Shown here: positions 1,316 to 21,033 of the stretch, piece by piece
Numbering within the stretch: the stretch's first letter is position 1
Layout of the letters: every line of letters starts with the position of its first letter
Translations under genes and position numbers: made by a program
Source of the DNA: Archaeoglobus fulgidus DSM 4304
Lineage (GTDB): Archaea; Halobacteriota; Archaeoglobi; Archaeoglobales; Archaeoglobaceae
Direction of reading: 5' to 3'
NCBI RefSeq assembly: GCF_000008665.1
Contig: NC_000917.1
Location: 390,001 to 422,000, forward strand
Length of the DNA: 32,000 nt
The notes under the pieces: model-generated
Told to the model about the DNA's origin: nothing
The model's database searches: none
What the model saw: only the letters and a program-made list of their open reading frames with translations

Positions 1316-2230
1316 TCACTTACGAACCCCCAACCTCCTCAGCACCTCAGTAGCCCTCTCCTGCCCGAAGTACTCGTAAACACCTCCCTTGCTGCCCGGC
1401 TTTAACGATGGGTCGCCCAGATAGCCAGCATCCACAAGCTGGACGAGTAGCTTTGGAGGTGCCCACTTGGGGTCTTTCGTTGCCTCGAACATCGCCTCGT
1501 AGATTCTGAGCCTCGTGTCGAGGCCGACCAAATCTCCCGTCTCAATGGGGCCCATAGAGTAGCCGTAGCCGAGCATCATGCCGATGTCGATGTCCTGCGG
1601 TGTCGCAACACCTTCCTGAACCATCAGCAAGGCCTCCTTGCCAAGAACAAGGCCAAGGCGGGAGGTAGCAAAGCCGGGGGAGTCATTGACGACGATGGGC
1701 ACTTTTCCCAGCTTGAGGAACCAGTCTCTGATGCCGTTAACAAGCTTCTCGTCGCTCAGCAAGCCCTTTACAAGCTCAACAAGCTTCTGAATCTGCGCTG
1801 GGTTGAAGAAGTGAATGCCCAGAAACCTCTCTGGGTTGCTGACGGCGGAGGAGAGCTTGGTTATGCTTATTGAGGAGGTGTTTGAGCCTATGACCGCATC
1901 CGTAACAGCATCAATCTCCCTCAGAACCTTCAGCTTCAGGTTAACGTCCTCGAAAACGGCCTCTATTACCAGATCACAGTCCTTTAAAGCGCTGTGAGAT
2001 GTGCTGGTGGATATTCTGCTCAGCACAGCGTTCATCTCCTCCTCCGTGATTTTTCCTTTTTCCACAAGCCTCTGCAGTCCAAATCTGCCGGCTTTTATCG
2101 CCTCCATTCCCTTCCTCAGCCTTTCCTCGCTAACGTCAATCGCAACAACCTCCAAACCCTGCTGGGCAAAAAATTGGGTTATCTGGGTGCCCATCAGGCC
2201 GAATCCGACAACTCCAATCTTCTCGAACAT
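1316..2230 (-). CDS. hbd: 3-hydroxyacyl-CoA dehydrogenase (NAD-dependent)
   Basis: 304 aa. N-terminal Rossmann motif IGVVGFGLMGTQI, central NTSS and HFFNP motifs, and a C-terminal dimerisation region typical of the 3HCDH family. Last gene of the beta-oxidation operon. Confidence 0.9.
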   Translation of the reverse strand: MFEKIGVVGFGLMGTQITQFFAQQGLEVVAIDVSEERLRKGMEAIKAGRFGLQRLVEKGKITEEEMNAVLSRISTSTSHSALKDCDLVIEAVFEDVNLKLKVLREIDAVTDAVIGSNTSSISITKLSSAVSNPERFLGIHFFNPAQIQKLVELVKGLLSDEKLVNGIRDWFLKLGKVPIVVNDSPGFATSRLGLVLGKEALLMVQEGVATPQDIDIGMMLGYGYSMGPIETGDLVGLDTRLRIYEAMFEATKDPKWAPPKLLVQLVDAGYLGDPSLKPGSKGGVYEYFGQERATEVLRRLGVRK

Positions 2231-2234
2231 GCCA

Positions 2235-3005
2235 TCACCTTCCCCTAAACTCAGGCTTCCTCTTCTCCAGAAACGCCCTCATCCCCTCCTTAGCATCCTC
2301 GCTGGAGAAGAGCAGGGCGAAGAGGCTTGCCTCATACCTCAGCCCCTCCTTCAGGGGCATGTTGATTGATGCGTTCAAAGCTTTCTTCGCCACCTTTACA
2401 GCGAGAGGCGATTTCTCGATTATTTTAGCGGCAACCTCCTTTGCCCTCTCCATCAGCCTTTCGTGCTCCACAACCTCCTCAACCAGCCCTATTCTTAAAG
2501 CAGTCTGAGCATCGATTATCTCCCCCGTAAGAACAAGCTTTTTCGCCATCCCCAGCCCCACGAGCCTCGGCAGCCTCTGCGTCCCTCCCGCTCCGGGAAT
2601 TATGGCGAGGTTTATCTCTGGCTGCCCGAACTTTGCCTTTTCACTGGCAATTCTTATGTCGCACGCCATCGCCAGCTCACAACCCCCACCGAGGGTGTAT
2701 CCGTTAACTGCGGCAATCACCGGAATCTCAAGCTCCTCAATTCTCGAAAAGAGATCCGTTCCGAGCTTTGTTGCCTCAAAAGCCTTAATTGCATCCCTCT
2801 GAAGAAGCTCGTTGATGTCAGCGCCGGCAGCAAAGGCCTTGCCGCTGCCGGTAATGATTAAAACTCTTGCCACTTCCTCGATGCCCTCAATAACCTCAGC
2901 CAGCTCCATCCTCGTTTTGGTGTCAAGAGCGTTTAGCTTCTCTGGTCTGTTGAGGGTTGCAACAGCAATTTCACCATCAAGCTCAAGCTTGACTCTCTCT
3001 CCCAT
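2235..3005 (-). CDS. Enoyl-CoA hydratase (crotonase family)
   Basis: 256 aa. Contains LNRPEKLNAL, FAAGADI, and GYTLGGGCELAMACDIRIAS followed by FGQPEINLAIIPGAGGTQRL, the classical crotonase oxyanion-hole and catalytic-Glu regions. Confidence 0.9.
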   Translation of the reverse strand: MGERVKLELDGEIAVATLNRPEKLNALDTKTRMELAEVIEGIEEVARVLIITGSGKAFAAGADINELLQRDAIKAFEATKLGTDLFSRIEELEIPVIAAVNGYTLGGGCELAMACDIRIASEKAKFGQPEINLAIIPGAGGTQRLPRLVGLGMAKKLVLTGEIIDAQTALRIGLVEEVVEHERLMERAKEVAAKIIEKSPLAVKVAKKALNASINMPLKEGLRYEASLFALLFSSEDAKEGMRAFLEKRKPEFRGR

Positions 3006-3014
3006 TCTCCCACC

Positions 3015-4163
3015 TCAAAGCTTTCCTATCAACCTTCTCGCAATTATCTGCTTCTGAACCTCTTTCGTTCCCTCGTAAATCTCCATCAGCTTCGCATCCC
3101 TGTAGTAGCGCTCTGCCGGATACTCGCCGATGTACCCGTAGCCACCATGAAGCTGCACGCACCAGTCTGCGACGTAAACAGCTGTCTCCCCTGCAAACCA
3201 CTTGGCCATCGAGGAAAGCTCAGGCCTTGACTGCCCGATGCTGCACTGCCAAGCAGCCTGCCACGTCAGCAGCCTTGCAGCCTGAATGCGCGTCGCCATC
3301 TCGGCAATCTTGAATTGCGTGTGCTGAAATGCAGCAATCGGCTGCCCGAACTGCTTCCTCTGCTTAACGTAGTTCAAAGCAAGCTCAAAAGCCCCCTGAG
3401 CTATCCCCACAGCCTGAGCCGCCACCCTCGGTCTCGTGTGGTTGAAGAACTCCATGAGGTAGTAGAAGCCCTTTCCCGGCTCGCCCAGAATGTTCTCCTC
3501 CGGCACCTTTACATCTTTCAGCACAATCTCAGCTGTATCACTCGCCCTGAGGCCGAGCTTGTTCTTTATCTTCGTAGCCTTAAACCCCTTACTCTTGCTC
3601 TCCACAATGGCGAAGGTGAGGCCGTGGTGCCTCTTCTCCCCCTCGTAGGTTCTACCCAGAACCAAAACGAAATCGCAGACAGTGCCGTTGGTGATGAACA
3701 TCTTGGTGCCGTTTATGACCCACTCGTCCCCCTCCTTGACGATTTTGGTCTTAACGTTAGCCACATCACTTCCCGCCTCTGGCTCGGTTGTCGCCATTGC
3801 CGAAATCCCGTGCCTCTCAGTCACCCATCTAAGATACTTCTCCTTCTGCTCCTCACTGCCGAACAGGATGAGAAGCTCAGTGCCGAAGGTTGAGCTAAGG
3901 CAAGCATTCCCTATCCCCGGACTAACCCTGTAGAACTCCTCCGTAACCAGAGCTTCCTCAAAAAGACTTAACCCCATACCCCCATACTCCTCAGGAATCT
4001 TCACTGTCGAGAAGCCAAGGTCTCTCGCCTTCCTGACGATTTCCATTGGATACTTTTCCTCTCTATCGCACTCCTCTATAACTTCGGGGGTGAACTCCTT
4101 CTCAGCAAACTCTCTCGCAGCCCTCCTTATGTCCTCCTGCTCAGGAGTTAGCTTAAAATCCAT
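3015..4163 (-). CDS. Acyl-CoA dehydrogenase (FAD-dependent)
   Basis: 382 aa. Contains TEPEAGSD, WVINGTKMFITNG and QLHGGYGY...YRDAKLMEIYEGT (catalytic Glu region), the ACAD family signatures. Confidence 0.92.
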   Translation of the reverse strand: MDFKLTPEQEDIRRAAREFAEKEFTPEVIEECDREEKYPMEIVRKARDLGFSTVKIPEEYGGMGLSLFEEALVTEEFYRVSPGIGNACLSSTFGTELLILFGSEEQKEKYLRWVTERHGISAMATTEPEAGSDVANVKTKIVKEGDEWVINGTKMFITNGTVCDFVLVLGRTYEGEKRHHGLTFAIVESKSKGFKATKIKNKLGLRASDTAEIVLKDVKVPEENILGEPGKGFYYLMEFFNHTRPRVAAQAVGIAQGAFELALNYVKQRKQFGQPIAAFQHTQFKIAEMATRIQAARLLTWQAAWQCSIGQSRPELSSMAKWFAGETAVYVADWCVQLHGGYGYIGEYPAERYYRDAKLMEIYEGTKEVQKQIIARRLIGKL

Positions 4164-8196: not shown

Positions 8197-8279
8197 GCGG
8201 GGGTTGCCGAGCGGACAAAGGCGCAGGATTGAGGGTCCTGTCCCGTAGGGGTTCGAGGGTTCGAATCCCTCCCCCCGCA
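8197..8279 (+). tRNA. tRNA-Leu (anticodon GAG)
   Basis: Hand-folded 83-nt cloverleaf. Acceptor GCGGGGG/CCCCCGC. Anticodon stem CAGGA/TCCTG with loop TTGAGGG (U33, GAG, G37). Long variable arm (class II). T-arm GAGGG-TTCGAAT-CCCTC. Discriminator A. CCA is not encoded and there is no intron. Confidence 0.93.
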
Positions 8280-8368: not shown

Positions 8369-11300
8369 CTTTCAATCCCATTTTGGTCTGATTTCAACTT
8401 ACTGTGTTCCGAGCTTTCAGAGGCAGGCCAAGAGCTCTTTTAATCCCATTTTGGTCTGATTTCAACCTTCATGTGCTCTCAACCAGTAGTATATTGTCCT
8501 AACTGCTTTCAATCCCATTTTGGTCTGATTTCAACAGGCCCGGAATCAACAGGAACACCTGATACACGAATACTTTCAATCCCATTTTGGTCTGATTTCA
8601 ACATGCGGAATTAACAGCATTATCAGGAAAGCGATTATGACTTTCAATCCCATTTTGGTCTGATTTCAACGGGGGGAGGATGAGAGCTCTGTTTGCCGTT
8701 CTGGTGTCTTTCAATCCCATTTTGGTCTGATTTCAACTTTCTGGCATGGGGAGTTAGCAGGAACGTGGCAGGCTACTTTCAATCCCATTTTGGTCTGATT
8801 TCAACGTTAAGCTCTCGGTCGGGCTCTTTGCTCGGTAGAACCCTTTCAATCCCATTTTGGTCTGATTTCAACGACTGTAATCTCAACTCCTCCGCCATCT
8901 TCTGAAACTCCTTTCAATCCCATTTTGGTCTGATTTCAACCACATTGACGTGGCGGATTAAGCGCTTGTGGAAAGTGTTTTCTTTCAATCCCATTTTGGT
9001 CTGATTTCAACGATGAAGCCATATTTGTCGCATTATTCCACGACGTCCTTTCAATCCCATTTTGGTCTGATTTCAACCTTCTCAACTATCGGTTGTTTGA
9101 CATTTGTATCCTTTCCTTTCAATCCCATTTTGGTCTGATTTCAACGAAGTTCCACATTCCCGTGACTTTCAAGAAGATTATGCTTTCAATCCCATTTTGG
9201 TCTGATTTCAACACAATCTGATCGAACAGATTACCAGTCAAAGCAACTCCCTTTCAATCCCATTTTGGTCTGATTTCAACTTGCTGAGCTCAGAGGCTTT
9301 ACCGCTAACACTCGCCTTAACGCTTTCAATCCCATTTTGGTCTGATTTCAACTTGTCAGTTCTCTTCTGATCGATTCGGCCAGAGTGGTATATTCTTTCA
9401 ATCCCATTTTGGTCTGATTTCAACCTGAGTCTGCTTACTCCAAGATTTATGTCTCTGTATGTCTCTTTCAATCCCATTTTGGTCTGATTTCAACCCGGCA
9501 AAACAAGATACCACGATTTCTTCCCATGCCACTTTCAATCCCATTTTGGTCTGATTTCAACCTCCGACTATCACCCAGTCAAACCCCTCGAAGTCCGACT
9601 TTCAATCCCATTTTGGTCTGATTTCAACAGGTGCCTTGTAACCTTTCTATTTTTTGATTGCTCTCTTTCAATCCCATTTTGGTCTGATTTCAACTACCGA
9701 GCTGCTCAGCGTTGGGATGGAGTATTTCACGCTTTCAATCCCATTTTGGTCTGATTTCAACCTGCGGGGGAGCAGCCCATCGCCGAATACGACAACCTTT
9801 CAATCCCATTTTGGTCTGATTTCAACTACTCCCCTGAAACCTCCTCAGAGCCTTCGTGTCCTCTTTCAATCCCATTTTGGTCTGATTTCAACCGTTCGGC
9901 GTCGTAGAGGAAGAGAAGAGGGAGTCCAGACTTTCAATCCCATTTTGGTCTGATTTCAACGAGGCGTTCATCAAGGAGGCTTACCGAGTTCTAAAAAAAG
10001 ACTTTCAATCCCATTTTGGTCTGATTTCAACAGTCGTTTTGAAAACCACCGAGCCGTCAGCGGTTGCGACCCCTTTCAATCCCATTTTGGTCTGATTTCA
10101 ACTAAGATCCTGAAGCCAGATCCAGACCTCAAAGAAGGCCTTTCAATCCCATTTTGGTCTGATTTCAACCAATCTCGTCGTCAGCAATCGAGATATTAGC
10201 AGTTCCCGACTTTCAATCCCATTTTGGTCTGATTTCAACTATTTAGCCCTCTTAACGACCCGTTCTTCGCTGTTTATCTTTCAATCCCATTTTGGTCTGA
10301 TTTCAACTTTAAGAACCTTGAATGTCTTACCTGCTGGAAGTCTAAACCCTTTCAATCCCATTTTGGTCTGATTTCAACTCAGCCACGTCGTTGAACCGAT
10401 GCTCGCAGACTTCAACGGCTCCCTTTCAATCCCATTTTGGTCTGATTTCAACTCCGTAACTATGCTATTGTTCTCAAGCAAATTATACTCTTTCAATCCC
10501 ATTTTGGTCTGATTTCAACCAGGAGGAATGATATGTTTATTGGACAAAGACAGGTCTTTCAATCCCATTTTGGTCTGATTTCAACATCGCCAATTGCCTC
10601 AACACTCACTTTGCCATAGCAATACAACTTTCAATCCCATTTTGGTCTGATTTCAACTTCGGGGGATTTGATGAGTTGCTTCTCCTCTTGCCCTTCTTTC
10701 AATCCCATTTTGGTCTGATTTCAACTCCCCTCTGGAGTTCGTGAGGTATGCCTCCTTTATCTTTCAATCCCATTTTGGTCTGATTTCAACGGCCGAGCTG
10801 AAGCTGCTCTATGTCGGAGAGTTCCACTTTCAATCCCATTTTGGTCTGATTTCAACTAACGAATCTCAAAGCCCTCGCATTGGAAAGGGTCGCTTTCAAT
10901 CCCATTTTGGTCTGATTTCAACCAAGTACAGACTCTCGAAGCCGCCCGTAAAATCGCTCTTTCAATCCCATTTTGGTCTGATTTCAACAAACCCCCCTCT
11001 TGGTGGAGTTGGCAAAGATTATGTCCTTTCAATCCCATTTTGGTCTGATTTCAACTCACGACGCTCCCTAACGGTAAGGCAATAGTTAAAAGCTTTCAAT
11101 CCCATTTTGGTCTGATTTCAACTAGGGCAACAGTTGTTCGATCTCCTCTCTCGTTAAGCTTTCAATCCCATTTTGGTCTGATTTCAACTGTTCAATCAAG
11201 TCAAAACGTATTACTCTCAAAGCGCTTTCAATCCCATTTTGGTCTGATTTCAACCATTAACAGCTCTCAGAACGATTTGGGACAGAACAATCTTTCAATC

Positions 11301-11590
11301 CCATTTTGGTCTGATTTCAACTTGAACTCCACCTCTGGCAACAGCGGCTGCTATTACTGCTTTCAATCCCATTTTGGTCTGATTTCAACCCTTGATCGAG
11401 GGAGAGAAGAACCCTCGAGTCGTCGTCCTTTCAATCCCATTTTGGTCTGATTTCAACTCAAAAACGTTTTGGAGAGTAGTTCTCGCACTTGCTGCTTTCA
11501 ATCCCATTTTGGTCTGATTTCAACCGCCTTGCTGAAAGCTCTAAGCACCACTTCGGCAATCTTTCAATCCCATTTTGGTCTGATTTCAAC
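8369..11590 (-). CRISPR. CRISPR array: 48 x 30-nt repeats and 47 spacers (35-44 nt)
   Basis: Every repeat was located by hand, the first at 8369-8398 and the last at 11561-11590. Plus-strand unit is CTTTCAATCCCATTTTGGTCTGATTTCAAC. Only the repeat at 8437-8466 differs (CTTTTAAT...). All spacers are unique by eye. Minus-strand transcription is inferred for three reasons. The reverse complement GTTGAAATCAGACCAAAATGGGATTGAAAG ends in ATTGAAAG, the canonical Cas6-generated 8-nt crRNA 5' tag. The long AT-rich non-coding flank lies on the right. The single degenerate repeat lies at the left (trailer) end. Confidence 0.97.
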
Positions 11591-13313: not shown

Positions 13314-13694
13314 TTAACTCAGGAGTTTCGTCGTAAACTCAGACTCCCTCAGGAACACGGGAACTTCAACGTCTCTGCCCCCTACTTCAATGGTTGGTTT
13401 AATAGCGACTCTGATTTTCGTCTTCTCCCCATTCGCGATGTGCGTCACCCACCATTCTCGAATAAAACTGTTGTTTAGCCTTAAAGAAAACTTAAGTGTG
13501 GTCTTCGATTTTGGTTTTACGGTTACTGGAGAATTTTCATAACCATCGGCAACCTTCACGCCGTTCATCTCAATGGTGTAGTGGTATCCGCTTACTACAA
13601 TAGGAACGACATCCTCGTTCCTGACTTTAGCGAGAGCCACAATTTCTGTTTGGCTGTCTGTTACAACTCCCCACATCGCCTTAACGGACTCCAC
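13314..13694 (-). CDS. LEA14-like (LEA_2 / COG5608-type) domain protein, no signal peptide; possibly the 3' half of a frameshifted two-domain gene
   Basis: 126 aa from a GTG start. WGVVTDSQTEIVALAKVRNEDVVPIVVSGYHYTIEMNGVKVADG...IREWWVTHIANGEKTKIRV parallels the upstream paralogue domain residue for residue. See the finding on the frameshift. Confidence 0.6.
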   Translation of the reverse strand: MESVKAMWGVVTDSQTEIVALAKVRNEDVVPIVVSGYHYTIEMNGVKVADGYENSPVTVKPKSKTTLKFSLRLNNSFIREWWVTHIANGEKTKIRVAIKPTIEVGGRDVEVPVFLRESEFTTKLLS

Positions 13695-14197
13695 AGTGAC
13701 AGGGAAGCCATCGACCTTTCAGGAACGTTTGTGCAGAATCCGGAAAGAATATCTGTTTTAAACCGGTTTGTAATTTCAAATGGAACTTTGAAGTCAATAA
13801 ATCTTAGATCAAAGACCATGTATCCCCTAATGCTAACCGTTGACTCCTCCCCGTTTGTGATGTGGCTTCTCCACCATTGGGGAATTTTGCTGTTGTCGAC
13901 ATACGTGGTGATTATCACAGTTGATTCAGAGTTTGGTTCGATATGGGCGCTTAATGCCGATCCCTCACCCATTTTGATTCCGTTGATGTAAACTTCCGTC
14001 AGAATGTCCTTTAACGGTAGCGGAAACGGGTTTGGATTGTAAACTTTGACCGTTGTTATGATTTCTGTCGTAGACTCTGTCACTTTTCCCCACTTGCTGT
14101 TGATTTCCTTCAACTGGGGTTTCCCTACCACCTGTAAGCATCCAGTTATGGCAAGGGCAACGAGGGCGATTACAGTAATTCTCATAATTACAATCAT
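13661..14197 (-). CDS. LEA14-like (LEA_2) domain lipoprotein/secreted protein
   Basis: From ATG 14197 (the ORF-track start at 14209 is a GTG): MIVIMRITVIALVALAITGC, a signal peptide with lipobox-like ITGC. This is followed by WGKVTESTTEIITTVKVYNPNPFPLPLKDILTEVYINGIKMGEG...IPQWWRSHITNGEESTV, the LEA_2 immunoglobulin-like repeat pattern. Confidence 0.7.
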   Translation of the reverse strand: MIVIMRITVIALVALAITGCLQVVGKPQLKEINSKWGKVTESTTEIITTVKVYNPNPFPLPLKDILTEVYINGIKMGEGSALSAHIEPNSESTVIITTYVDNSKIPQWWRSHITNGEESTVSIRGYMVFDLRFIDFKVPFEITNRFKTDILSGFCTNVPERSMASLSLWSPLRRCGEL

Positions 14198-14313
14198 GGT
14201 ATTAGACACAAAAGCTTTCTCCTTAATCTCACAGGTGTTTTCATGGTCTTGCGAAAGGTTGATATTTTTTTAGGATAAATTTAAACAAGTTACCCTCCGA
14301 GCAGGGATAGGAT

Positions 14314-16629
14314 ATGGATAGTGAGTCAATTGAAAAAATTTGGGAGGAGTGGTTTAAGGAAGTATCCAAAGAATTTTCTCCTGAGCTGAGAGTAGTGGTT
14401 AAGGAGAGAATTAAAGGATACATCTACGCCCTTCTCTCAGGTGAGGACTCCGAAAAAATAGTGGAACAAATCGATGATGAACTGATTGAGAGGATAATCA
14501 GGAGTGGAAGCAAACCGGAAGATGTAGTCAGAAGAATGGAACTCTTCGCAAATAAACTTTCTGAATACGAAGAGTTCGAGAAGGTTGCGAAGAACTTTGC
14601 AAGGTTTGTTCCAGCACTTCTGAGGAAAATGTTGGGTGTTTATGAGAGAATTTTGCAGGAAGAGCAAGAAAGAAGGAAAAGGGCTGAGAGAGCTTTAAGG
14701 GTCTTGAGCAAGGTTAACGAAGCTGTAACCAGAGCAAGCGATGAGGAAGAGCTGCTAAAGGAAGTCTGCAGGATAATTGTTGAGGAAGGCGGTTACGCCT
14801 ACGCCTGGGTTGGGTATGCTGAGAAGGATAAGACTGTAAAGCCAGTTGCCGCTTCAGGCAATGACGACTATGCATGGGTAATAAAGGTTACCTGGAACGA
14901 TAGCGAGACCGGTCGGGGACCTGTTGGCAGCTCAATCAGGCTTAGAAAAACTGTGGTGGTAAGGGAAACCGACGCAGACGAGTCCTTCAAACCCTGGAGA
15001 GAAGAAGCTTTAAAAAGAGGTTTTAGATCTGTAGCAGCCATTCCTCTTCACGTTGAGAACGAGGTAATTGGCTCTTTAGCCATCTACGCTCCAGAGCCAG
15101 ACGCTTTTGACGAGGAAGAGCTCTCCCTGCTTGAAGAGCTTGCCGAAAGTCTCTCTAATGCAATCGCCTCCCTGAGAGAGAAAAAGGAAAAGGAGATGCT
15201 GGAGAAGCTGTACGAGCTTGTAGTAGAGAACACAGGAACAGCAATACTCGTAATCGAAAACGGAAAGATCGTTTTCGCAAACAAAGAGGTGGAAAAATTA
15301 TCAGGATACAGCAGAGAAGAGCTTGTAGGAAAGCCTTTCACCATTCTGCTTCCTGAAGAAGATCGCAAAGAGATTCTAAGAATTCACAAACTAAGGCTTG
15401 CAGACCCCGAATCGGCTCCAAGACAGTACGAGATAAAGTATGTTGACAAAGAAGGCAGAATAAGGTATGCAATTATCACGGCTACGGTTATTCCCGGAAC
15501 TAAAAGGGTTGTTGTCTCCTTAATGGATATTACCGAAGCTAAGGAGATGGAGAGAAAGCTAAAAGAAAGCGAGGAAAGGTACAGGGCTGTATTTGAAAAC
15601 TCCCCTCTGGGAATAGTTCTTGCGTCAGTGGACACAACGATCCTTGACTGCAATAATGCAGCTTTAAGAATGTTCGGAATGAGAAGAGAAGACGTCATAG
15701 GGAAAAAATGGACCGAACTTGGCCTTTTTGATGACGCCAAGCTGCCCGAGATAATGAAGGAGTTTTACCGTGGACTGAGCGAAGAGTTCAGGGAGCTGGA
15801 CTTGGAGGTAAACATTGGTGGGAAATTAAAAATCCTAAAAGTGTTTCCGGTTTTGCTTAAAAAAGAGGGGGTTCCCTACACATTTCTTAACATAATTGAG
15901 GATATCACCGAAAAGATGATTGCGGAGAGAAAGCTAAGAGACGCTCTCGAAAGCCTTCAGATTCTGAGATCAGTCGATTTGGGAATTATAGAGGGCAAAA
16001 ACCTTCGAGATATGCTTCTTGAAGTGGCAAAGGTTGTAAGGCGAAAGATTGGCTGTGATGTTATTGCTATCAGGGTTTTCGGTGAAAATGGCTTTGTTGT
16101 TTCAGATCCTGAGATTGGAAGATCTGTTTTAGAGAAAATAGACGCTGAGAAAGAGGTCGTGGTAAATATTCTGGAAAAAGATGATTTAAATGAACTGGAG
16201 GTAGAGCTGCTCAAAGGCGGATTTGCTCGCTATGTCTCGATACCCTTAATAGCAAGAGATGAGAAAGTAGGAGTGATATTTGCAGCAAGCAAGGGAATTG
16301 AGGGGAAGGATATCGATTTCCTCAAAACAACAGCGGGACAGCTTGCTATAGCCATACACGAAGCGTTACTGTTTGAGGCTAAGATGAAAGCATACGAGCA
16401 GATAGAGAAGAACATAGAGCAGTTTGCAATTTTAGTTGACCACATCCGCAATCCTTTGGCTGCTGCACAGGGATACGTTGAGATATTCGTCGAGAACGAG
16501 GAAGCGAAGAAAAAAATTAAAGAGCAGCTTGACAGAGTGGTGGAGCTGGTTGAGCAGCTCGAGAGGGGGTGGGTTGAGTCTGAGGCAATAAGAGACTATT
16601 TAAGAAGAGAGCGTGAAGAAAGGAGGTGA
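14314..16629 (+). CDS. Multidomain sensor: helical N-domain, GAF, PAS, PAS, GAF and a DHp-like (HisKA-like) helix, with no ATPase (HATPase_c) domain
   Basis: 771 aa. GAF-like blocks are around residues 130-290 and 550-690. There are two PAS blocks (VVENTGTAILVIENGKIVFANKE..., FENSPLGIVLASVD...). The C-terminus FAILVDHIRNPLAAAQGYVEIF is an H-box (His codon at 16441-16443). The ORF ends about 60 aa later with no N/G1/G2 boxes. Confidence 0.85.
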   Translation: MDSESIEKIWEEWFKEVSKEFSPELRVVVKERIKGYIYALLSGEDSEKIVEQIDDELIERIIRSGSKPEDVVRRMELFANKLSEYEEFEKVAKNFARFVPALLRKMLGVYERILQEEQERRKRAERALRVLSKVNEAVTRASDEEELLKEVCRIIVEEGGYAYAWVGYAEKDKTVKPVAASGNDDYAWVIKVTWNDSETGRGPVGSSIRLRKTVVVRETDADESFKPWREEALKRGFRSVAAIPLHVENEVIGSLAIYAPEPDAFDEEELSLLEELAESLSNAIASLREKKEKEMLEKLYELVVENTGTAILVIENGKIVFANKEVEKLSGYSREELVGKPFTILLPEEDRKEILRIHKLRLADPESAPRQYEIKYVDKEGRIRYAIITATVIPGTKRVVVSLMDITEAKEMERKLKESEERYRAVFENSPLGIVLASVDTTILDCNNAALRMFGMRREDVIGKKWTELGLFDDAKLPEIMKEFYRGLSEEFRELDLEVNIGGKLKILKVFPVLLKKEGVPYTFLNIIEDITEKMIAERKLRDALESLQILRSVDLGIIEGKNLRDMLLEVAKVVRRKIGCDVIAIRVFGENGFVVSDPEIGRSVLEKIDAEKEVVVNILEKDDLNELEVELLKGGFARYVSIPLIARDEKVGVIFAASKGIEGKDIDFLKTTAGQLAIAIHEALLFEAKMKAYEQIEKNIEQFAILVDHIRNPLAAAQGYVEIFVENEEAKKKIKEQLDRVVELVEQLERGWVESEAIRDYLRREREERR

Positions 16630-16633
16630 TGCT

Positions 16634-16990
16634 GTGAACAAACGTAGAGTTATGGTTGTGGAGGATGATTCAGCAGTTCTCGAAACCGTGCAGATTATGC
16701 TGGGTGATAAGTACGAAATTATACCCGCAACGAACGGTGAGGAGGCAGTAAAGAAGTACAAGATGTTCAAACCAGATGTCGTGCTAATGGACGTCATGAT
16801 GCCCGTAATGGACGGTGTTGAGGCAACTAAGGAGATAAAGAAAATAGACCCTCAGGCAAAGATAATAGGCCTCACTGCCTATGCCAGAAAGAAGGGGAAG
16901 GAGCTGCTTGATGCAGGAGCGCTTGAAGTTGTTGAAAAGCCCTTTACGAGGAGGCAGCTGATTGAAGTCATAGAGAAATACTTGGAATGA
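16634..16990 (+). CDS. Stand-alone receiver domain (CheY-like response regulator)
   Basis: Contains VMVVEDD, PDVVLMDVMMPVMDG (phospho-acceptor Asp), GLTAYA and EKPF, with no output domain. I prefer the GTG at 16634, which is in frame with ORF 16613..16990. It lies 5 nt after the Shine-Dalgarno-like AGGAGGTGA (16621-16629) and just after the upstream TGA. Confidence 0.9.
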   Translation: MNKRRVMVVEDDSAVLETVQIMLGDKYEIIPATNGEEAVKKYKMFKPDVVLMDVMMPVMDGVEATKEIKKIDPQAKIIGLTAYARKKGKELLDAGALEVVEKPFTRRQLIEVIEKYLE

Positions 16991-17976
16991 GTAATATGCA
17001 AGATGTATTTCGGGAAGTTGTGGAAATTGCCCCATTCCCTGCTTTACTACACAATGAGATAGGGGTTATTGTTTACGCAAATAAGGCCTTTGAGAGAGTT
17101 TTTGGCTACTCTCGGGAGGAGGTTTTGCAGAGAATTTTTGTCGAGCTTGTCCACCCCAGAGACAGAGAAAAAGCGGAAAATGCGATGAGGAGAAGACTTG
17201 CGGGGGAAACGGTAGAACCTTTTTTGATAAAAGTTAGAGGAAAGGACGGAAACTACAGAACAGTTCAGGTTTTTGGGAGCAGAGCACGTTTTATGGGTGA
17301 GATTTTGGGGATTATTGCTTTATCTGACGTCACAAAGCTTGAAGAGCAGAAGGTAATGCTAACATTGATAACCCGCGCACTAAGGCACGATGTGCTGAAC
17401 GCCCTCACAACCGCCATGTCGTACTTTGAGATTAGCAGAGAAATTTGTAAAAACTGCGAGAATTCCAACTATTTGGAGAAACTGGGATTGTCTATTGAGA
17501 GAGCAGTCAAAATCATAAAAGATTTGAGGGAGTTTGAGGAGGCCGTAGTTAAGGGAGAGCTGGAAAGAATAAATGTCAGAGAAATCGTTGAAGACGTTGC
17601 AGACCACTTTAACGTGCCCATAACAATAGAGGGTGAGTGTGAGGTTGTGGCCGACAGAGGATTGAGAGCAGTCTTTGAGAATTTATTCCAGAATGCCATC
17701 CAGCATGGCAAGACGGACAGAATTGAGGTCACAATGAAAAACGTTGGAGACTTCTGCGAGATAAGGGTAATTGACTACGGCAAGGGGATACCGGAGGAGA
17801 TAAAGGATAATATTTTCGAAGAAGGATTTACTTATGGCGAAGCTGCATCAACCGGACAGGGGCTCTACCTCGTTAAGAAGCTTGTTGAGAGATACGGTGG
17901 GGAAATCCGGGTTGAGGATAACAGTCCGAGGGGAGCGGTCTTTGTTGTCAGGTTGAGGGCGTGGGTTGGGGAGTGA
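16987..17976 (+). CDS. PAS-domain sensor histidine kinase (DHp + HATPase_c)
   Basis: 329 aa. N-terminal PAS (ALLHNEIGVIVYANKAFERVFGYSREEV). H-box LITRALRHDVLNALT. N-box FENLFQNAIQHG. G1 IDYGKGIP. G2 GQGLYLVKKLVERYGG. ATGA overlap with the response regulator gene. Confidence 0.9.
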   Translation: MSNMQDVFREVVEIAPFPALLHNEIGVIVYANKAFERVFGYSREEVLQRIFVELVHPRDREKAENAMRRRLAGETVEPFLIKVRGKDGNYRTVQVFGSRARFMGEILGIIALSDVTKLEEQKVMLTLITRALRHDVLNALTTAMSYFEISREICKNCENSNYLEKLGLSIERAVKIIKDLREFEEAVVKGELERINVREIVEDVADHFNVPITIEGECEVVADRGLRAVFENLFQNAIQHGKTDRIEVTMKNVGDFCEIRVIDYGKGIPEEIKDNIFEEGFTYGEAASTGQGLYLVKKLVERYGGEIRVEDNSPRGAVFVVRLRAWVGE

Positions 17977-17983
17977 AGATACC

Positions 17984-18000
17984 AAAAAGCTATATATATT
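17984..18000 (+). promoter_or_regulatory. Candidate internal promoter (TATA box) for the KaiC-like operon
   Basis: AAAAAGCTATATATATT starts 8 nt after the kinase stop (17974-17976). The TATATATAT core (17991-17999) lies about 34 nt upstream of ATG 18029, which is the spacing of a short-leader archaeal promoter. Confidence 0.5.
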
Positions 18001-18028
18001 GGGAACCATATTAACCAAGGGATCCAAA

Positions 18029-18394
18029 ATGACAATGATAATGAGGAGTATCATTGATTCTTTAGAAGCTCTGTTTTCAAGTTTCTTTTCGAGCATAGCC
18101 CCAAACTTGTATGAAGTTTTGAACTTTCACTGCAAGAAGCATACAGGAATGAATTTTGCTGAAGCCACTCTTAAAAATCCCAAGCTCACCTACGAGTTTC
18201 TCGTGAAGTTCTTCGATTCGGAGATGGCAGTTGACGTTCTTGACTACCTGCTCAGCAATTTTCTGAAGAAGTATAGCATTCGAGCCTACGGAATCCTGAA
18301 AAGCTTTAAAAGTGGGGATAATAAAAAATTGATTGAGGTGGCTAAGTTATACAGCAAGGTGATGCAGAATGGAGGCGGTAAAGACAGGGATTGA
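18029..18394 (+). CDS. Hypothetical small alpha-helical protein (121 aa), translationally overlapped with the KaiC-like gene
   Basis: ORF 17966..18394. The GTG at 17966 would overlap the kinase gene and read through the TATA element, so ATG 18029 (MTMIMRSIIDSLEALF...) is preferred. I recognise no family motif. The 3' end overlaps the KaiC-like start by 26 nt. Confidence 0.5.
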   Translation: MTMIMRSIIDSLEALFSSFFSSIAPNLYEVLNFHCKKHTGMNFAEATLKNPKLTYEFLVKFFDSEMAVDVLDYLLSNFLKKYSIRAYGILKSFKSGDNKKLIEVAKLYSKVMQNGGGKDRD

Positions 18395-19700
18395 GGGTTT
18401 TGATGATATTTTTGGAGGATTCTACAGGGGCCAGATAATACTTATTGCCGGTAATCCCGGCTCCGGAAAAACGACTTTTTGTGCTAAGTTTCTTTATGAA
18501 GGGGCCAGAAGATTCGGTGAAAATGGACTTTACATAAGCATTGGCGAGTCGAAGGAGGAGTTTTACGAGTACATGAAAAAACTTGGGATGGACTTTGAGA
18601 AACTGGAGAAGACGGGCTCATTCAAATATGTGGAAATGCTCGCACCCACCTCGGAAGATGCGCTAATGCAGCTATCGAGAGAGCTAACTAAAAATGCCCT
18701 CGAATTGAAAGCGACGAGAATCGTCATCGACTCAATTTCTCCCATACTGTCGATGAATCCCGAGACGGCAAGGGCAATTCTGCACAACGCCCTCAAAACC
18801 ATTAGCAGGGAGCTGAAGTCGGTTGTGCTGATGACAGAAGAGATGCCAATAGGCGAGACGAGAATCGGTCAGGGGATAGAGGAGTTCGTTGTTGATGGAG
18901 TTATAGTTCTCAGGCTTGAAGTTCCAGAGGCTGGGGCTCCTGTTAGAACGATGAGTGTGCTGAAGCTCAGGGGAAAGCCGCTGGACAGGGCTGTGTACAA
19001 CTTTGAAATAGGACCTCCTTCAGGTGTGAGAGTGCTGATGCACGGAATAGAGGAGCTCGAGTCGAACATAGATTTTAATAACAAAATAGCCACCGGCATT
19101 GATGGTTTTGATGAACTTTTGGGTGGTGGCATCATCAGGGGAACTGCGACGGCATTCGTTGGACCTTCCGGAGGGGGAAAAACAGTGCTCATGCTTAGCG
19201 CAGCAGCCAATGTTGCCATTAACGGTGAGAATGTTACCTATATCTCCTTTGAAGAGCCAAGGCAGCAGATTGAAGAAACCTTAAAATTCCTTGGCTACGG
19301 AGAAGTAGAAGGTCTCGAGATTTTGAGCCTAAATCCGAGGATGATATCTTTAAGGGCGCTATACGACATACTATCTAAGACTGTTCTGGACCACCGCACA
19401 ATGCTTTTCATCGACGGGCTGAACGCAATCAGGAGGGAGTTTGGAGAGGCTTTTCACAGAGTGGTTAGGGATGTGGTGTTTCAGATGAAAAAGAACGGGA
19501 TAACAGTTGTTATCAGCCTAATTGGCGGTACTATCAAGGAGACTCTTTTAAGCACCATCGTTGATAATGTAGTTGAGCTGAGGGTGGTGGAGAAAGATGG
19601 CGAACTTAGGAGGGAGATCGCAGTTCGTAAAGCGAGGATGTCCAGAGCTTCTAACGAAGTGAAAAGACTCGTCTTCGACGGAAAGCCTGCGGTGAGATGA
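18369..19700 (+). CDS. KaiC-like double RecA-superfamily ATPase
   Basis: 443 aa, two tandem KaiC/RadA-type domains. Domain 1: TGIEGFDDIFGGFYRGQIILIAGNPGSGKTTF, with Walker B RIVIDSIS. Domain 2: TGIDGFDELLGGGIIRGTATAFVGPSGGGKTVL, with YISFEEP (catalytic Glu pair) and Walker B MLFIDGLN. Confidence 0.9.
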   Translation: MEAVKTGIEGFDDIFGGFYRGQIILIAGNPGSGKTTFCAKFLYEGARRFGENGLYISIGESKEEFYEYMKKLGMDFEKLEKTGSFKYVEMLAPTSEDALMQLSRELTKNALELKATRIVIDSISPILSMNPETARAILHNALKTISRELKSVVLMTEEMPIGETRIGQGIEEFVVDGVIVLRLEVPEAGAPVRTMSVLKLRGKPLDRAVYNFEIGPPSGVRVLMHGIEELESNIDFNNKIATGIDGFDELLGGGIIRGTATAFVGPSGGGKTVLMLSAAANVAINGENVTYISFEEPRQQIEETLKFLGYGEVEGLEILSLNPRMISLRALYDILSKTVLDHRTMLFIDGLNAIRREFGEAFHRVVRDVVFQMKKNGITVVISLIGGTIKETLLSTIVDNVVELRVVEKDGELRREIAVRKARMSRASNEVKRLVFDGKPAVR

Positions 19701-20083
19701 TGGATGCAGCCAGAAAAATCTTAGAGAGGCTTGAAAAAAGAGGATACAAAATCATAGAAAGAGAGAAAGTGAGAGGTGAGTCTGGGATAGAGCATACCTT
19801 CGATGCAGTAATACTAGGGCCTCAGGGAAAAAGAATTGCAGTGACAATTCTTGAGAGGCTTGGATTCGAACACGTAATTCCCCTTCTTGCCTTCAGAAAT
19901 GATCACAGAATGCCCCACATCGTATTTGCAAAGGAGATCGAAGTGGGAGTTGAAAAAATCCTGAAAAATTCCAATATTGTTGTAATACATCTGAAAGACC
20001 TTTCCGTAGCTTATGATCATCCAGAGTTAAGGGAAGAACAAGTGCTTGAAAAGGTTCTGAAACTACTCGAGGACACGACCTAA
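19697..20083 (+). CDS. Hypothetical protein (128 aa), ATGA-coupled to the KaiC-like gene
   Basis: Its start ATG (19697-19699) overlaps the KaiC-like TGA (19698-19700). The secondary-structure-like pattern is helix (AARKILERLEKRGYKI), strand (EHTFDAVIL), strand (KRIAVTILE). This is faintly reminiscent of a restriction-endonuclease-like fold, but no catalytic motif is evident. Confidence 0.55.
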   Translation: MMDAARKILERLEKRGYKIIEREKVRGESGIEHTFDAVILGPQGKRIAVTILERLGFEHVIPLLAFRNDHRMPHIVFAKEIEVGVEKILKNSNIVVIHLKDLSVAYDHPELREEQVLEKVLKLLEDTT

Positions 20084-20115
20084 AAAGTTTTAAATATTAA
20101 GTTCTAAAATAATAC

Positions 20116-21033
20116 ATGGATTACATGGAACTTGTTCTGGAGAACATTCGAGACGGTATTTTCGTCATTCAGAATGATGTAATCGTTTTCGCGACCCCTT
20201 CGGTAAAAGAGGCCGGATACGATATTTCAGAAGTTGTTGGTAAAAAATTTATTGAGTTCATCTGGGAGGGGAACAGAGAGGATGTTCTCAAAATCATCAG
20301 GTCCTTAACGGATGGGGCTGAATGTGAAATCAGAGCTCTGGCTAAGAAAAAAGATGGTAGGGCATGGATAGACGCCAGGTGCAAAAAGGTTGGAGAATAC
20401 CTGATTGTTGTAGCTAGAGACGTTTCCAGGCTGGTCTCTCTTGAAACTCTGCTTAGAGCCACCTTGGACATGCTTAGGCATTCACCAAGCGAAATTGACG
20501 AAGTTGAGAACATTCTGCGTGAGTATTTTGATGATGCAAGCTTTTCAGAAAAAATTCAGGACTTCAAGATTAAAGTAGGTGAGGTCACAGTTCCCGTTAG
20601 GTTTCAGGACAGAGTGTTGGGGAGCCTCAAAATCCAGCTGCCAGACTGGTTTGAGGTCACCGCCGAGGACATGGAACTTTTCAACGTTTTAGGGGAGTGT
20701 GTAGCGAAAAACATGATCATGCTGGAGTCAAGGAGAATCATAAGAAGCTCTCTTGTAGCTATTAAGGCAGCTTCAGAGAACCTTGCTCTTCTTGTCGATA
20801 GGATAAGAAATCCCCTTGCCGCCATTAACGGTTTTGTGGAGGTAAAAGTAGGAGGAGACGTTTACGAAAAGGTTCATGAACAGGTTATGGCAATTGAGGA
20901 GATTGTGAAGACTCTCGATGACGAGTGGGAGAAGGTGGACAGGCTTGCAGATAAGCTCAGCGAAGCCTTTTCTGTTTTAGAAAAACTCGGAACGACTGAA
21001 TCTCAGAAAATAAATAAAAAACGAAAAACCTAA
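20116..21033 (+). CDS. PAS sensor with C-terminal DHp-like helix in which the phospho-acceptor His is Arg; no ATPase domain
   Basis: 305 aa. N-terminal PAS (LENIRDGIFVIQNDVIVFATPSVKEAGYDISEVVGKKF). The C-terminus LALLVDRIRNPLAAINGFVEVKV is paralogous to the H-box of the 771-aa sensor, with an AGG (Arg) codon at 20800-20802 where the paralogue has His. Confidence 0.75.
   Translation: MDYMELVLENIRDGIFVIQNDVIVFATPSVKEAGYDISEVVGKKFIEFIWEGNREDVLKIIRSLTDGAECEIRALAKKKDGRAWIDARCKKVGEYLIVVARDVSRLVSLETLLRATLDMLRHSPSEIDEVENILREYFDDASFSEKIQDFKIKVGEVTVPVRFQDRVLGSLKIQLPDWFEVTAEDMELFNVLGECVAKNMIMLESRRIIRSSLVAIKAASENLALLVDRIRNPLAAINGFVEVKVGGDVYEKVHEQVMAIEEIVKTLDDEWEKVDRLADKLSEAFSVLEKLGTTESQKINKKRKT

Follow-up and report, generated by a model that had tools for sequence, protein, structure and literature searches.

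A compact group of genes built around a KaiC-like ATPase lies in the genome of the archaeon Archaeoglobus fulgidus DSM 4304, within a 32,000-nucleotide stretch (positions 390,001 to 422,000 of contig NC_000917.1, assembly GCF_000008665.1) that was analysed as a whole and is called the window here; coordinates given without a locus number are counted from its first nucleotide. Seven open reading frames, designated g1 to g7 (Table 1), all lie on the plus strand where a first-pass annotation made from the sequence alone had placed them, and comparison with Pfam and NCBIfam bore out the domains that it had described, while g4 and g6 matched no family in either collection. The g6 protein is 100% identical to the entry "Uncharacterized protein AF_0453"; the order of the UniProt accessions makes AF_0451, AF_0452 and AF_0454 the probable identities of g4, g5 and g7.

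Table 1. Genes and other features of the window (BRE, transcription factor B recognition element; nt, nucleotides; aa, amino acid residues)
Feature	Coordinates	Strand	Description
g1 (AF_0448)	14314..16629	+	sensor, 771 aa
g2 (AF_0449)	16634..16990	+	stand-alone receiver (REC), no output domain
g3 (AF_0450)	16987..17976	+	complete cytoplasmic histidine kinase, 329 aa
BRE/TATA-like element AAAAAGCT ATATATAT	17984..17999	+	candidate promoter element, ~30 nt 5' of the g4 ATG
g4 (probably AF_0451)	18029..18394	+	all-helical protein, 121 aa from ATG
g5 (probably AF_0452)	18369..19700	+	double-domain KaiC-like ATPase of the RecA superfamily, 443 aa
g6 (AF_0453)	19697..20083	+	nuclease-fold protein, 128 aa
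BRE/TATA-like element AAAAGTTTTAAAT	20085..20097	+	candidate promoter element in the 32-nt g6-g7 spacer
g7 (probably AF_0454)	20116..21033	+	PAS and pseudo-DHp protein, 305 aa
tRNA-Leu(GAG)	8197..8279		directly before the repeat array
CRISPR array	8369..11590	+	48 copies of a 30-nt repeat
Two LEA_2-domain genes	13314..14209	-	126 and 182 aa, directly upstream of g1

The junctions between these genes are narrow, and most agree with the earlier description. The receiver and kinase genes (g2 and g3) share an ATGA overlap; in the second group, g4 and g5 overlap by 26 nucleotides, g5 and g6 share a further ATGA, and a gap of 32 nucleotides separates g6 from g7. The spacer between sensor and receiver amounts to 4 nucleotides instead of the 5 first counted, as the g1 stop codon (TGA) occupies 16627-16629 and the best receiver start is a GTG at 16634 with GGAGGTGA just 5' of it.

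The g5 protein is, as had been proposed, a double-domain KaiC-like ATPase: two KaiC domains were matched (PF06745, E 2e-91), and its full length aligns to the solved KaiC structure 8zn5 (E 6e-54), with the segment LLSTIVD opposite the phosphosite segment HISTITD. Two RecA-like domains with Walker A and B motifs and catalytic glutamates can be recognised, together with a Ser/Thr pair in the second domain. Both Walker A motifs (GxxGSGKT and GPxGxGKT), E60 of the first domain, E295/E296 of the second, D121, D349, T396 and D399 are invariant among eight orthologues and paralogues; the Ser of the phosphosite pair is present in seven of eight orthologues and the Thr in all. With its ATPase and phosphosite residues so conserved, g5 looks active and is a probable autokinase. 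It is not a circadian KaiC by curated standards, scoring 221.6 bits against a cut-off of 408 for NF006799 and 134.5 bits against 546 for TIGR02655, and the alignment stops near residue 470 of the 518-residue KaiC, so that the C-terminal, KaiA-binding tail of the cyanobacterial protein is absent. The earlier statement that KaiA and KaiB are missing was upheld by family searches of the seven proteins and the flanking genes.

The gene that overlaps the end of g5 encodes a protein for which an AlphaFold2 (AF2) model (predicted local distance difference test score, pLDDT, 80.6) shows the alpha-beta-beta-beta-alpha-beta core of the PD-(D/E)xK restriction-endonuclease fold. The best matches in the PDB (Foldseek) are AF1548 (E 2.9e-5), Bax1 and the nuclease domains of NucS/EndoMS and Can2; a g6 profile compared with the sequences of solved structures found nothing meaningful, and no Pfam match was reported at any threshold, PF22722 and PF04471 included. 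Relatives of g6 were gathered by word-based search, profile search, an exhaustive HMMER scan and a scan of metagenome DNA. The family is rare: the HMMER scan of 1.8 billion representatives yielded no more than 22 clusters at E<=1e-10. In an alignment of 29 members, strand 3 reads [ST]-x-[LTIV]-[DE]-[RK], with no conserved (D/E)xK lysine and hence no catalytic D...(D/E)xK triad, and the motif G-x-SG-x-x-H-x-FD is kept along with several further polar residues. The model and the alignment together suggest a non-catalytic binding module, as g6 looks inactive as a nuclease.

More distant g6-like domains match the Mrr_cat and "inactive REase" (restriction endonuclease) families. Some occur in tandem (P0030, P0032, P0033 and P0037), and in P0037, a protein of 789 residues, they stand N-terminal to MshEN and T2SSE domains; nuclease-fold modules may thus be a recurrent accessory of hexameric ATPases, here of the PilB/GspE type. 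These PilB-linked tandem domains, the 114-residue proteins of loci L033-L041 and the P0028 lineage were all set outside the g6 family proper, with no linkage to KaiC.

A recurrent pattern is the pairing of g5 with g6. For reading gene contexts, all loci (cited here by L numbers) were annotated with the proteins of the window itself. Usable upstream DNA was available for 15 lineages. In 14 of them a KaiC gene immediately precedes the g6 homologue, and its stop codon mostly overlaps the g6 start; the exception is the more distant P0028 lineage. The pair was seen in Archaeoglobus species, in metagenome-assembled genomes (MAGs) of Methanomethylicia (KaiC 58% identical to g5) and in unassigned contigs from hot environments and metagenomes; the g5 orthologues encoded upstream of g6 family members are 53-87% identical to g5, and KaiC paralogues at or below 40% identity have no g6 neighbour. 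At L044 the KaiC upstream of g6 is a single-domain form of 227 residues. The conserved unit is therefore the g5-g6 pair and not the seven-gene cluster.

The whole seven-gene order does recur in another Archaeoglobus species, as seen in an Archaeoglobus MAG and metagenome contigs (L004, L007 and L024). L001, a more distant lineage, has only the receiver g2 upstream, and three architectures (g1-g2-g3, g3 only and g2 only) are represented in the genus; in each of them the two-component gene or genes immediately precede g4, in the same orientation. A genome scan with g5 returned 11 loci, A. fulgidus itself not among them, and the survey of Archaeoglobi is accordingly thin. The KaiC orthologue of L001 (3987-5327, from a Logan assembly) contains one in-frame stop and two frameshifts; because all of its segments remain 68-88% identical, the breaks were taken as a probable assembly error, with a very recent pseudogene as the alternative, and the gene was not counted as a pseudogene. 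Relatives of g5 and g6 at or above 90% identity carry the label "MAG: Methanolobus sp." (MDK2827182.1 and MDK2827181.1), which probably denotes a mis-binned Archaeoglobus contig.

The third member of the conserved arrangement is exchangeable. In every non-Archaeoglobus locus with enough flanking DNA, the KaiC-g6 pair is accompanied by an ACT-V4R protein, all of one mutually homologous family, whose gene lies downstream, upstream or divergently; in Archaeoglobus this slot is occupied by g7. The g7 protein has a PAS match and a sub-threshold HisKA match (18.4 bits against a Pfam cut-off of 26.9), and its C-terminus is 40% identical over 62 residues to the dimerisation domain of g1, with which it has the motif D-[H/R]-IRNPLAA in common. 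By sequence, the g7 C-terminus is a pseudo-DHp (dimerisation and histidine-phosphotransfer) domain and a paralogue of the g1 domain; its His is replaced by Arg (VDRIRNPL), and this replacement is fixed in orthologues down to 55% identity. A putative GAF-like remnant in the middle of g7 gave an hhalign probability of 9%, and a true GAF domain could not be established there.

Upstream of g5 and overlapping it lies g4, a small all-helical protein. Its best AF2 model has a pLDDT of 88.7 and seven helices, and the other four models reach 59-67. The best and only meaningful PDB match of that model (Foldseek) is PH0832 (2p9x; probability 1.0, E 0.09, template-modelling scores 0.59/0.72), and a g4 profile run against the sequences of solved structures found nothing meaningful. 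A second line of comparison comes from small proteins encoded next to KaiC at L046 and L047, which match NitrOD5 (PF11537; E 0.0027) and PH0832 (E 0.061) and share the motif VL(D/N)FH(F/C)KK...PK..YE. A hidden Markov model (HMM) of these NitrOD5-like proteins found the g4 orthologues as its sole extra matches (E ~1e-3), and hhalign aligned g4 with them at E 1e-4 and a probability of 58%. It is thus likely, though tentative and not secure, that g4 belongs to the PH0832/NitrOD5 class of archaeal Death-domain-like adaptors. Orthologues of g4 were found in Archaeoglobus loci only. Its length is given in public records as 81 (NCBI), 121 or 131 (MetaClust) residues, and a TTG start at 17966 would yield 142; the 121-residue form is favoured because its N-terminal 40 residues are conserved among orthologues. 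The L046 contig, which also carries a KaiC-g6-V4R set, contains on its minus strand (1402-3473) a second, divergent double-domain KaiC, preceded by a 101-residue protein of no assigned function and followed by an overlapping 111-residue NitrOD5/PH0832-like helical protein; this KaiC is a different paralogue, accompanied by the helical adaptor only.

Two promoter-like elements subdivide the genes. The TATA-like element noted earlier between the two groups is present: ATATATAT stands at 17992-17999 and nowhere else in the window, the expected number of copies being 0.06, and it is kept about 30 nucleotides before the g4 start in two related loci (L004 and L005) despite differing spacer lengths. 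The full BRE/TATA-like element is a likely promoter of g4, g5 and g6. The second element, AAAAGTTTTAAAT, is retained in four lineages, one of which has a g7 protein only 55% identical, and is a possible internal promoter that would yield a leaderless g7 mRNA. Since conserved elements precede both g4 and g7, three transcription units are possible; of the two-unit description, the tight packing stands and the number of units may have to be raised. In L004 (8221-8335) and L005 (6742-6795), the spacer between g3 and g4 also holds three direct repeats of about ACT(A/G)AAAATC(C/T)ACA just upstream of ATATATAT. These repeats, which could be an operator, are absent from A. fulgidus.

The first three genes are two-component genes of uneven completeness. 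The architecture described for g1 was recovered in full (GAF, PAS, PAS, GAF and HisKA, the last at 33.6 bits), following an N-terminal 130 residues without a defined domain, and no HATPase_c or other ATP-binding domain was matched in Pfam or NCBIfam. With sensor domains, a C-terminal HisKA-like domain and a conserved His, g1 has the make-up of the "HisKA, no HATPase" proteins, among which it is entered as one of seven from A. fulgidus (Galperin, 2018, Table S2; PMC5847659). The contrast first drawn between a DHp domain in g1 and an Arg-bearing one in g7 is less clean than it appeared: the Arg in g7 is real, but the g1 segment VDHIRNPL aligns without gaps to SHEIRNPL of the solved kinase KinB, which places the KinB phospho-His opposite an Asp of g1 and the g1 His, fixed among orthologues, opposite the acidic residue one position past the canonical site. 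Two accounts can be given: g1 may have lost a residue just behind the His, or this His may be other than the canonical acceptor. Because the H-E/D pair is disrupted on either account, even g1 may not be a normal phospho-acceptor.

The g2 receiver (PF00072, E 1e-25, 90.6 bits) has the acidic-pocket residues legible in its translation (EDD, LMDV and KPF) and is entered as "REC only" in the same census (PMC5847659, Table S2). It scores 87 bits against the NCBIfam equivalog cut-off of 200 for CheY and is therefore CheY-like in architecture only, not a chemotaxis CheY. The g3 kinase combines PAS, HisKA (29.8 bits, H-box RHDVLN) and HATPase_c (82.7 bits) domains, so that g3 and g2 have the sequence hallmarks of a two-component kinase and its receiver. 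No KaiB-like (thioredoxin-fold) or pseudo-receiver domain was matched on g1, g3 or g7 in Pfam or NCBIfam; only PAS, GAF, HisKA and HATPase domains were found. Elsewhere in A. fulgidus, HisKA-only or REC-HisKA genes also stand beside REC-only genes (AF_2420/AF_2419 and AF_1472/AF_1473; PMC5847659, Table S2), and pairings like that of g1 with g2 may be usual for the HisKA-only class.

This arrangement makes it quite probable that g4 to g7 form a signalling module built on KaiC, in which g6 is the fixed partner. What the sequences show is the anatomy, folds, motif conservation and gene linkage reported above; all physical contacts, the way in which signals flow and what g2 puts out are proposals built on them. 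A complex of g5 with g6 is argued because their linkage is steady and their translation coupled, and a small-molecule sensor is argued to feed that complex because the third gene is exchangeable. In such a module, g5 would be a double-ring ATPase, probably autophosphorylating on its conserved Ser/Thr pair; g6, an inactivated nuclease-fold protein, would be its fixed binding partner; g7, whose role an ACT-V4R protein fills elsewhere, would be the ligand-sensing subunit; and g4 would be a small helical Death-like adaptor, maybe standing in KaiB's place. Binding of a ligand to the sensor would determine the nucleotide or phosphorylation state of KaiC, which the adaptors would in turn read. The expectation that any partner switch must come from the unassigned proteins fits these results, as g6 is tied to this KaiC subfamily and g4 resembles Death-like adaptors, making both likely partners.

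Whether the module acts on g1 to g3 is an evenly balanced question. Such a link, which would be specific to Archaeoglobus, is plausible on three counts: the two-component genes adjoin the module in three architectures, g7 and g1 have paralogous dimerisation domains, and there is precedent in cyanobacteria, in Pseudomonas and, as a gene neighbourhood, in an uncultured bacterium. In the last of these (L010, 2350-9127), a 511-residue KaiC homologue 32% identical to g5 lies between a histidine kinase and a 771-residue protein with receiver and kinase similarity, an independent case of such a neighbourhood. The pseudo-DHp domain of g7 might either heterodimerise with g1 or dock on the stand-alone receiver g2, and would thereby tune the extent to which kinase g3 phosphorylates g2. 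The overall reading, that of a KaiC sensory module wired in Archaeoglobus to a neighbouring two-component system, is preferred with slightly better than even confidence. Accordingly, the original view of the locus as an ATPase-gated phosphorelay stands as to layout and is only partly backed as to the coupling of KaiC with kinase and receiver. Its further claim that KaiC integrates four PAS and two GAF domains overreaches, for KaiC is accompanied by g7 or ACT-V4R as its sensor and not by g1 or g3.

Several observations weigh against this reading. No locus outside Archaeoglobus has the two-component genes, and inside the genus their content changes, so that they are not a conserved part of the system as had been assumed; L005, which has the very same g6 as L004, has only the kinase g3 upstream and lacks g1 and g2. 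Adjacency inside one genus may be merely inherited synteny, and the possible separate promoters of g4 and g7 would permit independent expression. Within the module itself, the Archaeoglobus-like contig L026 has the KaiC-g6 pair without g7, the assignment of g4 draws on weak scores and on the one confident model of five, and the many invariant polar residues of g6 (S29, H33, D36, E58, H59, R67, D69 and H74) leave room for an enzymatic or ligand-binding role. A literature search with AF_04xx locus tags returned unrelated papers only.

A rival reading is that the two groups are independent neighbours: g1-g2-g3 would be an ordinary two-component unit, and g4-g7 a KaiC module complete in itself that signals without g2 or g3. 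The occurrence of the KaiC-g6-sensor module without two-component genes in Methanomethylicia and other lineages, the differing two-component content of close relatives, the conserved promoter-like element that parts the two units, and the existence of HisKA-only and REC-only pairs elsewhere in A. fulgidus (such as AF_2420/AF_2419) all favour independence. On the other hand, no Archaeoglobus variant lacks a co-directional two-component gene immediately before g4, the paralogy of the g7 and g1 domains is hard to explain if g7 never meets two-component proteins, and coupling of KaiC with kinase and receiver is documented in bacteria. Independence is therefore thought unlikely, though it is to be taken seriously.

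A timer, whether hourglass or oscillator, would have g5 autophosphorylate slowly and be reset by the sensor, measuring the duration of a condition with g4 or g6 acting as KaiB. The conserved Ser/Thr pair and CII glutamates are compatible with such a device, for an archaeal oscillation system it has been suggested that a Death-like protein substitutes for KaiB, and phosphorylation of the Pseudomonas KaiC follows culture age. The absence of KaiA, KaiB and the g5 tail and the scores of g5 below the curated circadian cut-offs speak against it, and the sequence offers nothing that would tell a timer from a simple switch. The host, moreover, is an anaerobic hyperthermophile for which no daily cue is known, and a timer is considered quite improbable.

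Two further readings are given very little credence. KaiC proteins of the RecA type are known for phosphorylating their own Ser/Thr and are not known to act on the His of another protein, which counts against the idea that g5 replaces the missing catalytic domain of HisKA-only proteins and phosphorylates the g1 His, with g7 (Arg) a non-phosphorylatable competitor; g1 does lack HATPase_c while keeping a fixed His, and HisKA-only proteins might still accept phosphate (Galperin, 2018; PMC5847659), but the canonical phospho-His position of g1 is an Asp, its His sits on the next, acidic position, and g1 is absent from two of the three Archaeoglobus variants and from all other lineages. The notion that KaiC and g6 are a nucleic acid-directed ATPase and nuclease, serving DNA repair or anti-virus defence with the signalling genes as bystanders, can draw on the kinship of the g6 fold with AF1548, Bax1, NucS and Can2, on the place of KaiC in the RecA/RadA/DnaB superfamily and on a 48-repeat CRISPR array some 3 kb upstream of g1, yet it is highly unlikely, since the (D/E)xK lysine is missing family-wide, the pair is constantly joined by a small-molecule sensor (V4R or PAS) as third partner, and the neighbouring genes are housekeeping genes that differ between lineages. 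PADLOC models matched none of g4, g6 and g7, and g5 matched only mad8, weakly and through its P-loop; on this result, the missing catalytic residues and the sensor partners, the defence-system version was rejected.

As for the surroundings, the CRISPR (clustered regularly interspaced short palindromic repeat) array directly follows the tRNA-Leu(GAG) gene and holds 48 copies of the repeat CTTTCAATCCCATTTTGGTCTGATTTCAAC, 47 of them exact; the three minus-strand genes scanned beside it encode QueC, a thiolase and an acyl-CoA dehydrogenase, and no cas genes were found among them. The longer of the two adjacent LEA_2-domain proteins encoded directly upstream of g1 has a hydrophobic N-terminus. In L004, thiolase-type genes take their place; the upstream flank is therefore not conserved, and the downstream flank is.

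Archaeal KaiC-like ATPases are abundant and were predicted years ago to act in signalling, and almost none has a defined set of partners. The A. fulgidus locus provides a compact, testable set (one KaiC, a constant AF_0453-family partner, an exchangeable sensor, a helical adaptor and a kinase/receiver read-out) in a cultivable, structurally well-behaved hyperthermophile. It could reveal how the state of a KaiC is passed on without KaiB, and what role the "histidine kinases without a kinase domain" of Archaeoglobi play. If the coupling is not real, the locus would still be an ordinary example of the KaiC hubs already proposed. A bolder and rather doubtful suggestion is that the AF_0453 family is a fold-unrelated and hitherto unrecognised functional counterpart of KaiB, an obligatory reader of the state of KaiC in a rare but widespread archaeal sensor system of three genes (for a sensor, KaiC and an AF_0453-like protein), and that g7 of Archaeoglobus is an independently evolved SasA-like bridge to two-component signalling, whose dimerisation domain has lost its phospho-acceptor and serves solely for docking on a receiver or a HisKA-only sensor.

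Comparison with known systems places the locus among several relatives. In cyanobacteria, the output of KaiC runs through histidine kinases to a response regulator. The double-domain KaiC, its catalytic glutamates and its Ser/Thr phosphosite pair are common to g5 and to the KaiABC system with SasA/CikA and RpaA, whereas the A. fulgidus locus has no KaiA, no KaiB, no g5 tail and no KaiB-like domain on its kinases, g5 falls below the curated KaiC cut-offs, and receiver g2 has no DNA-binding domain. In Pseudomonas, KaiC is phosphorylated and binds both the neighbouring PAS histidine kinase, via the PAS domain of the latter, and a single-domain receiver (bioRxiv 10.1101/2022.01.26.477890). A KaiC homologue adjoining a PAS kinase and a stand-alone receiver is likewise found in A. 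fulgidus; the Pseudomonas system is nevertheless bacterial, almost always includes the kinase (the two-component genes being optional for the A. fulgidus module), and is without an AF_0453-like, Death-like or pseudo-DHp protein.

Individual proteins of the locus have their own counterparts. The "HisKA, no HATPase" proteins of Archaeoglobi and Methanomicrobia include g1, and g7 has the same PAS-to-HisKA-like layout; however, g7 has Arg for the His conserved in that class and is not listed in the census, and the text of that work does not link the class to KaiC (Galperin, 2018; PMC5847659). Inactive REase domains on NTPases (NA-iREase1, PF22722; Mrr_cat, PF04471) have the fold of g6, and the distant g6 relatives that match them stand N-terminal on hexameric ATPases of the PilB/GspE type, whereas g6 stands alone as a polypeptide and is paired with an ATPase of the KaiC type.

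The literature already contains archaeal KaiC hubs, Death-like adaptors, HisKA-only proteins and KaiC-kinase-receiver neighbourhoods. Among the papers covered by the search there was no description of the AF_0453 family as a constant partner of KaiC, of the exchange between ACT-V4R and PAS sensors, or of the pseudo-DHp protein g7; a search on KaiC with endonuclease fold and archaea found nothing, and one on KaiC with V4R found no relevant link. Among the closest relatives are the archaeal hubs themselves (Makarova, Galperin and Koonin, 2017, mBio, as cited in PMC5847659 and PMC4858521), which were predicted to act in signal transduction with Death-like adaptors, one such protein having been suggested to replace KaiB. 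In those hubs, likewise, genes for sensor-domain proteins and for small helical adaptors of the Death-like kind, to which g4 tentatively belongs, accompany that of a KaiC-family ATPase, KaiA is absent, and the signalling role is a prediction; relative to the hubs so described, the A. fulgidus locus differs in its fixed nuclease-fold partner and in a sensor that is either ACT-V4R or a PAS protein with a pseudo-DHp domain. The trio of sensor, KaiC and AF_0453-like protein in A. fulgidus is thus probably a variant of the proposed archaeal KaiC signalling hubs.

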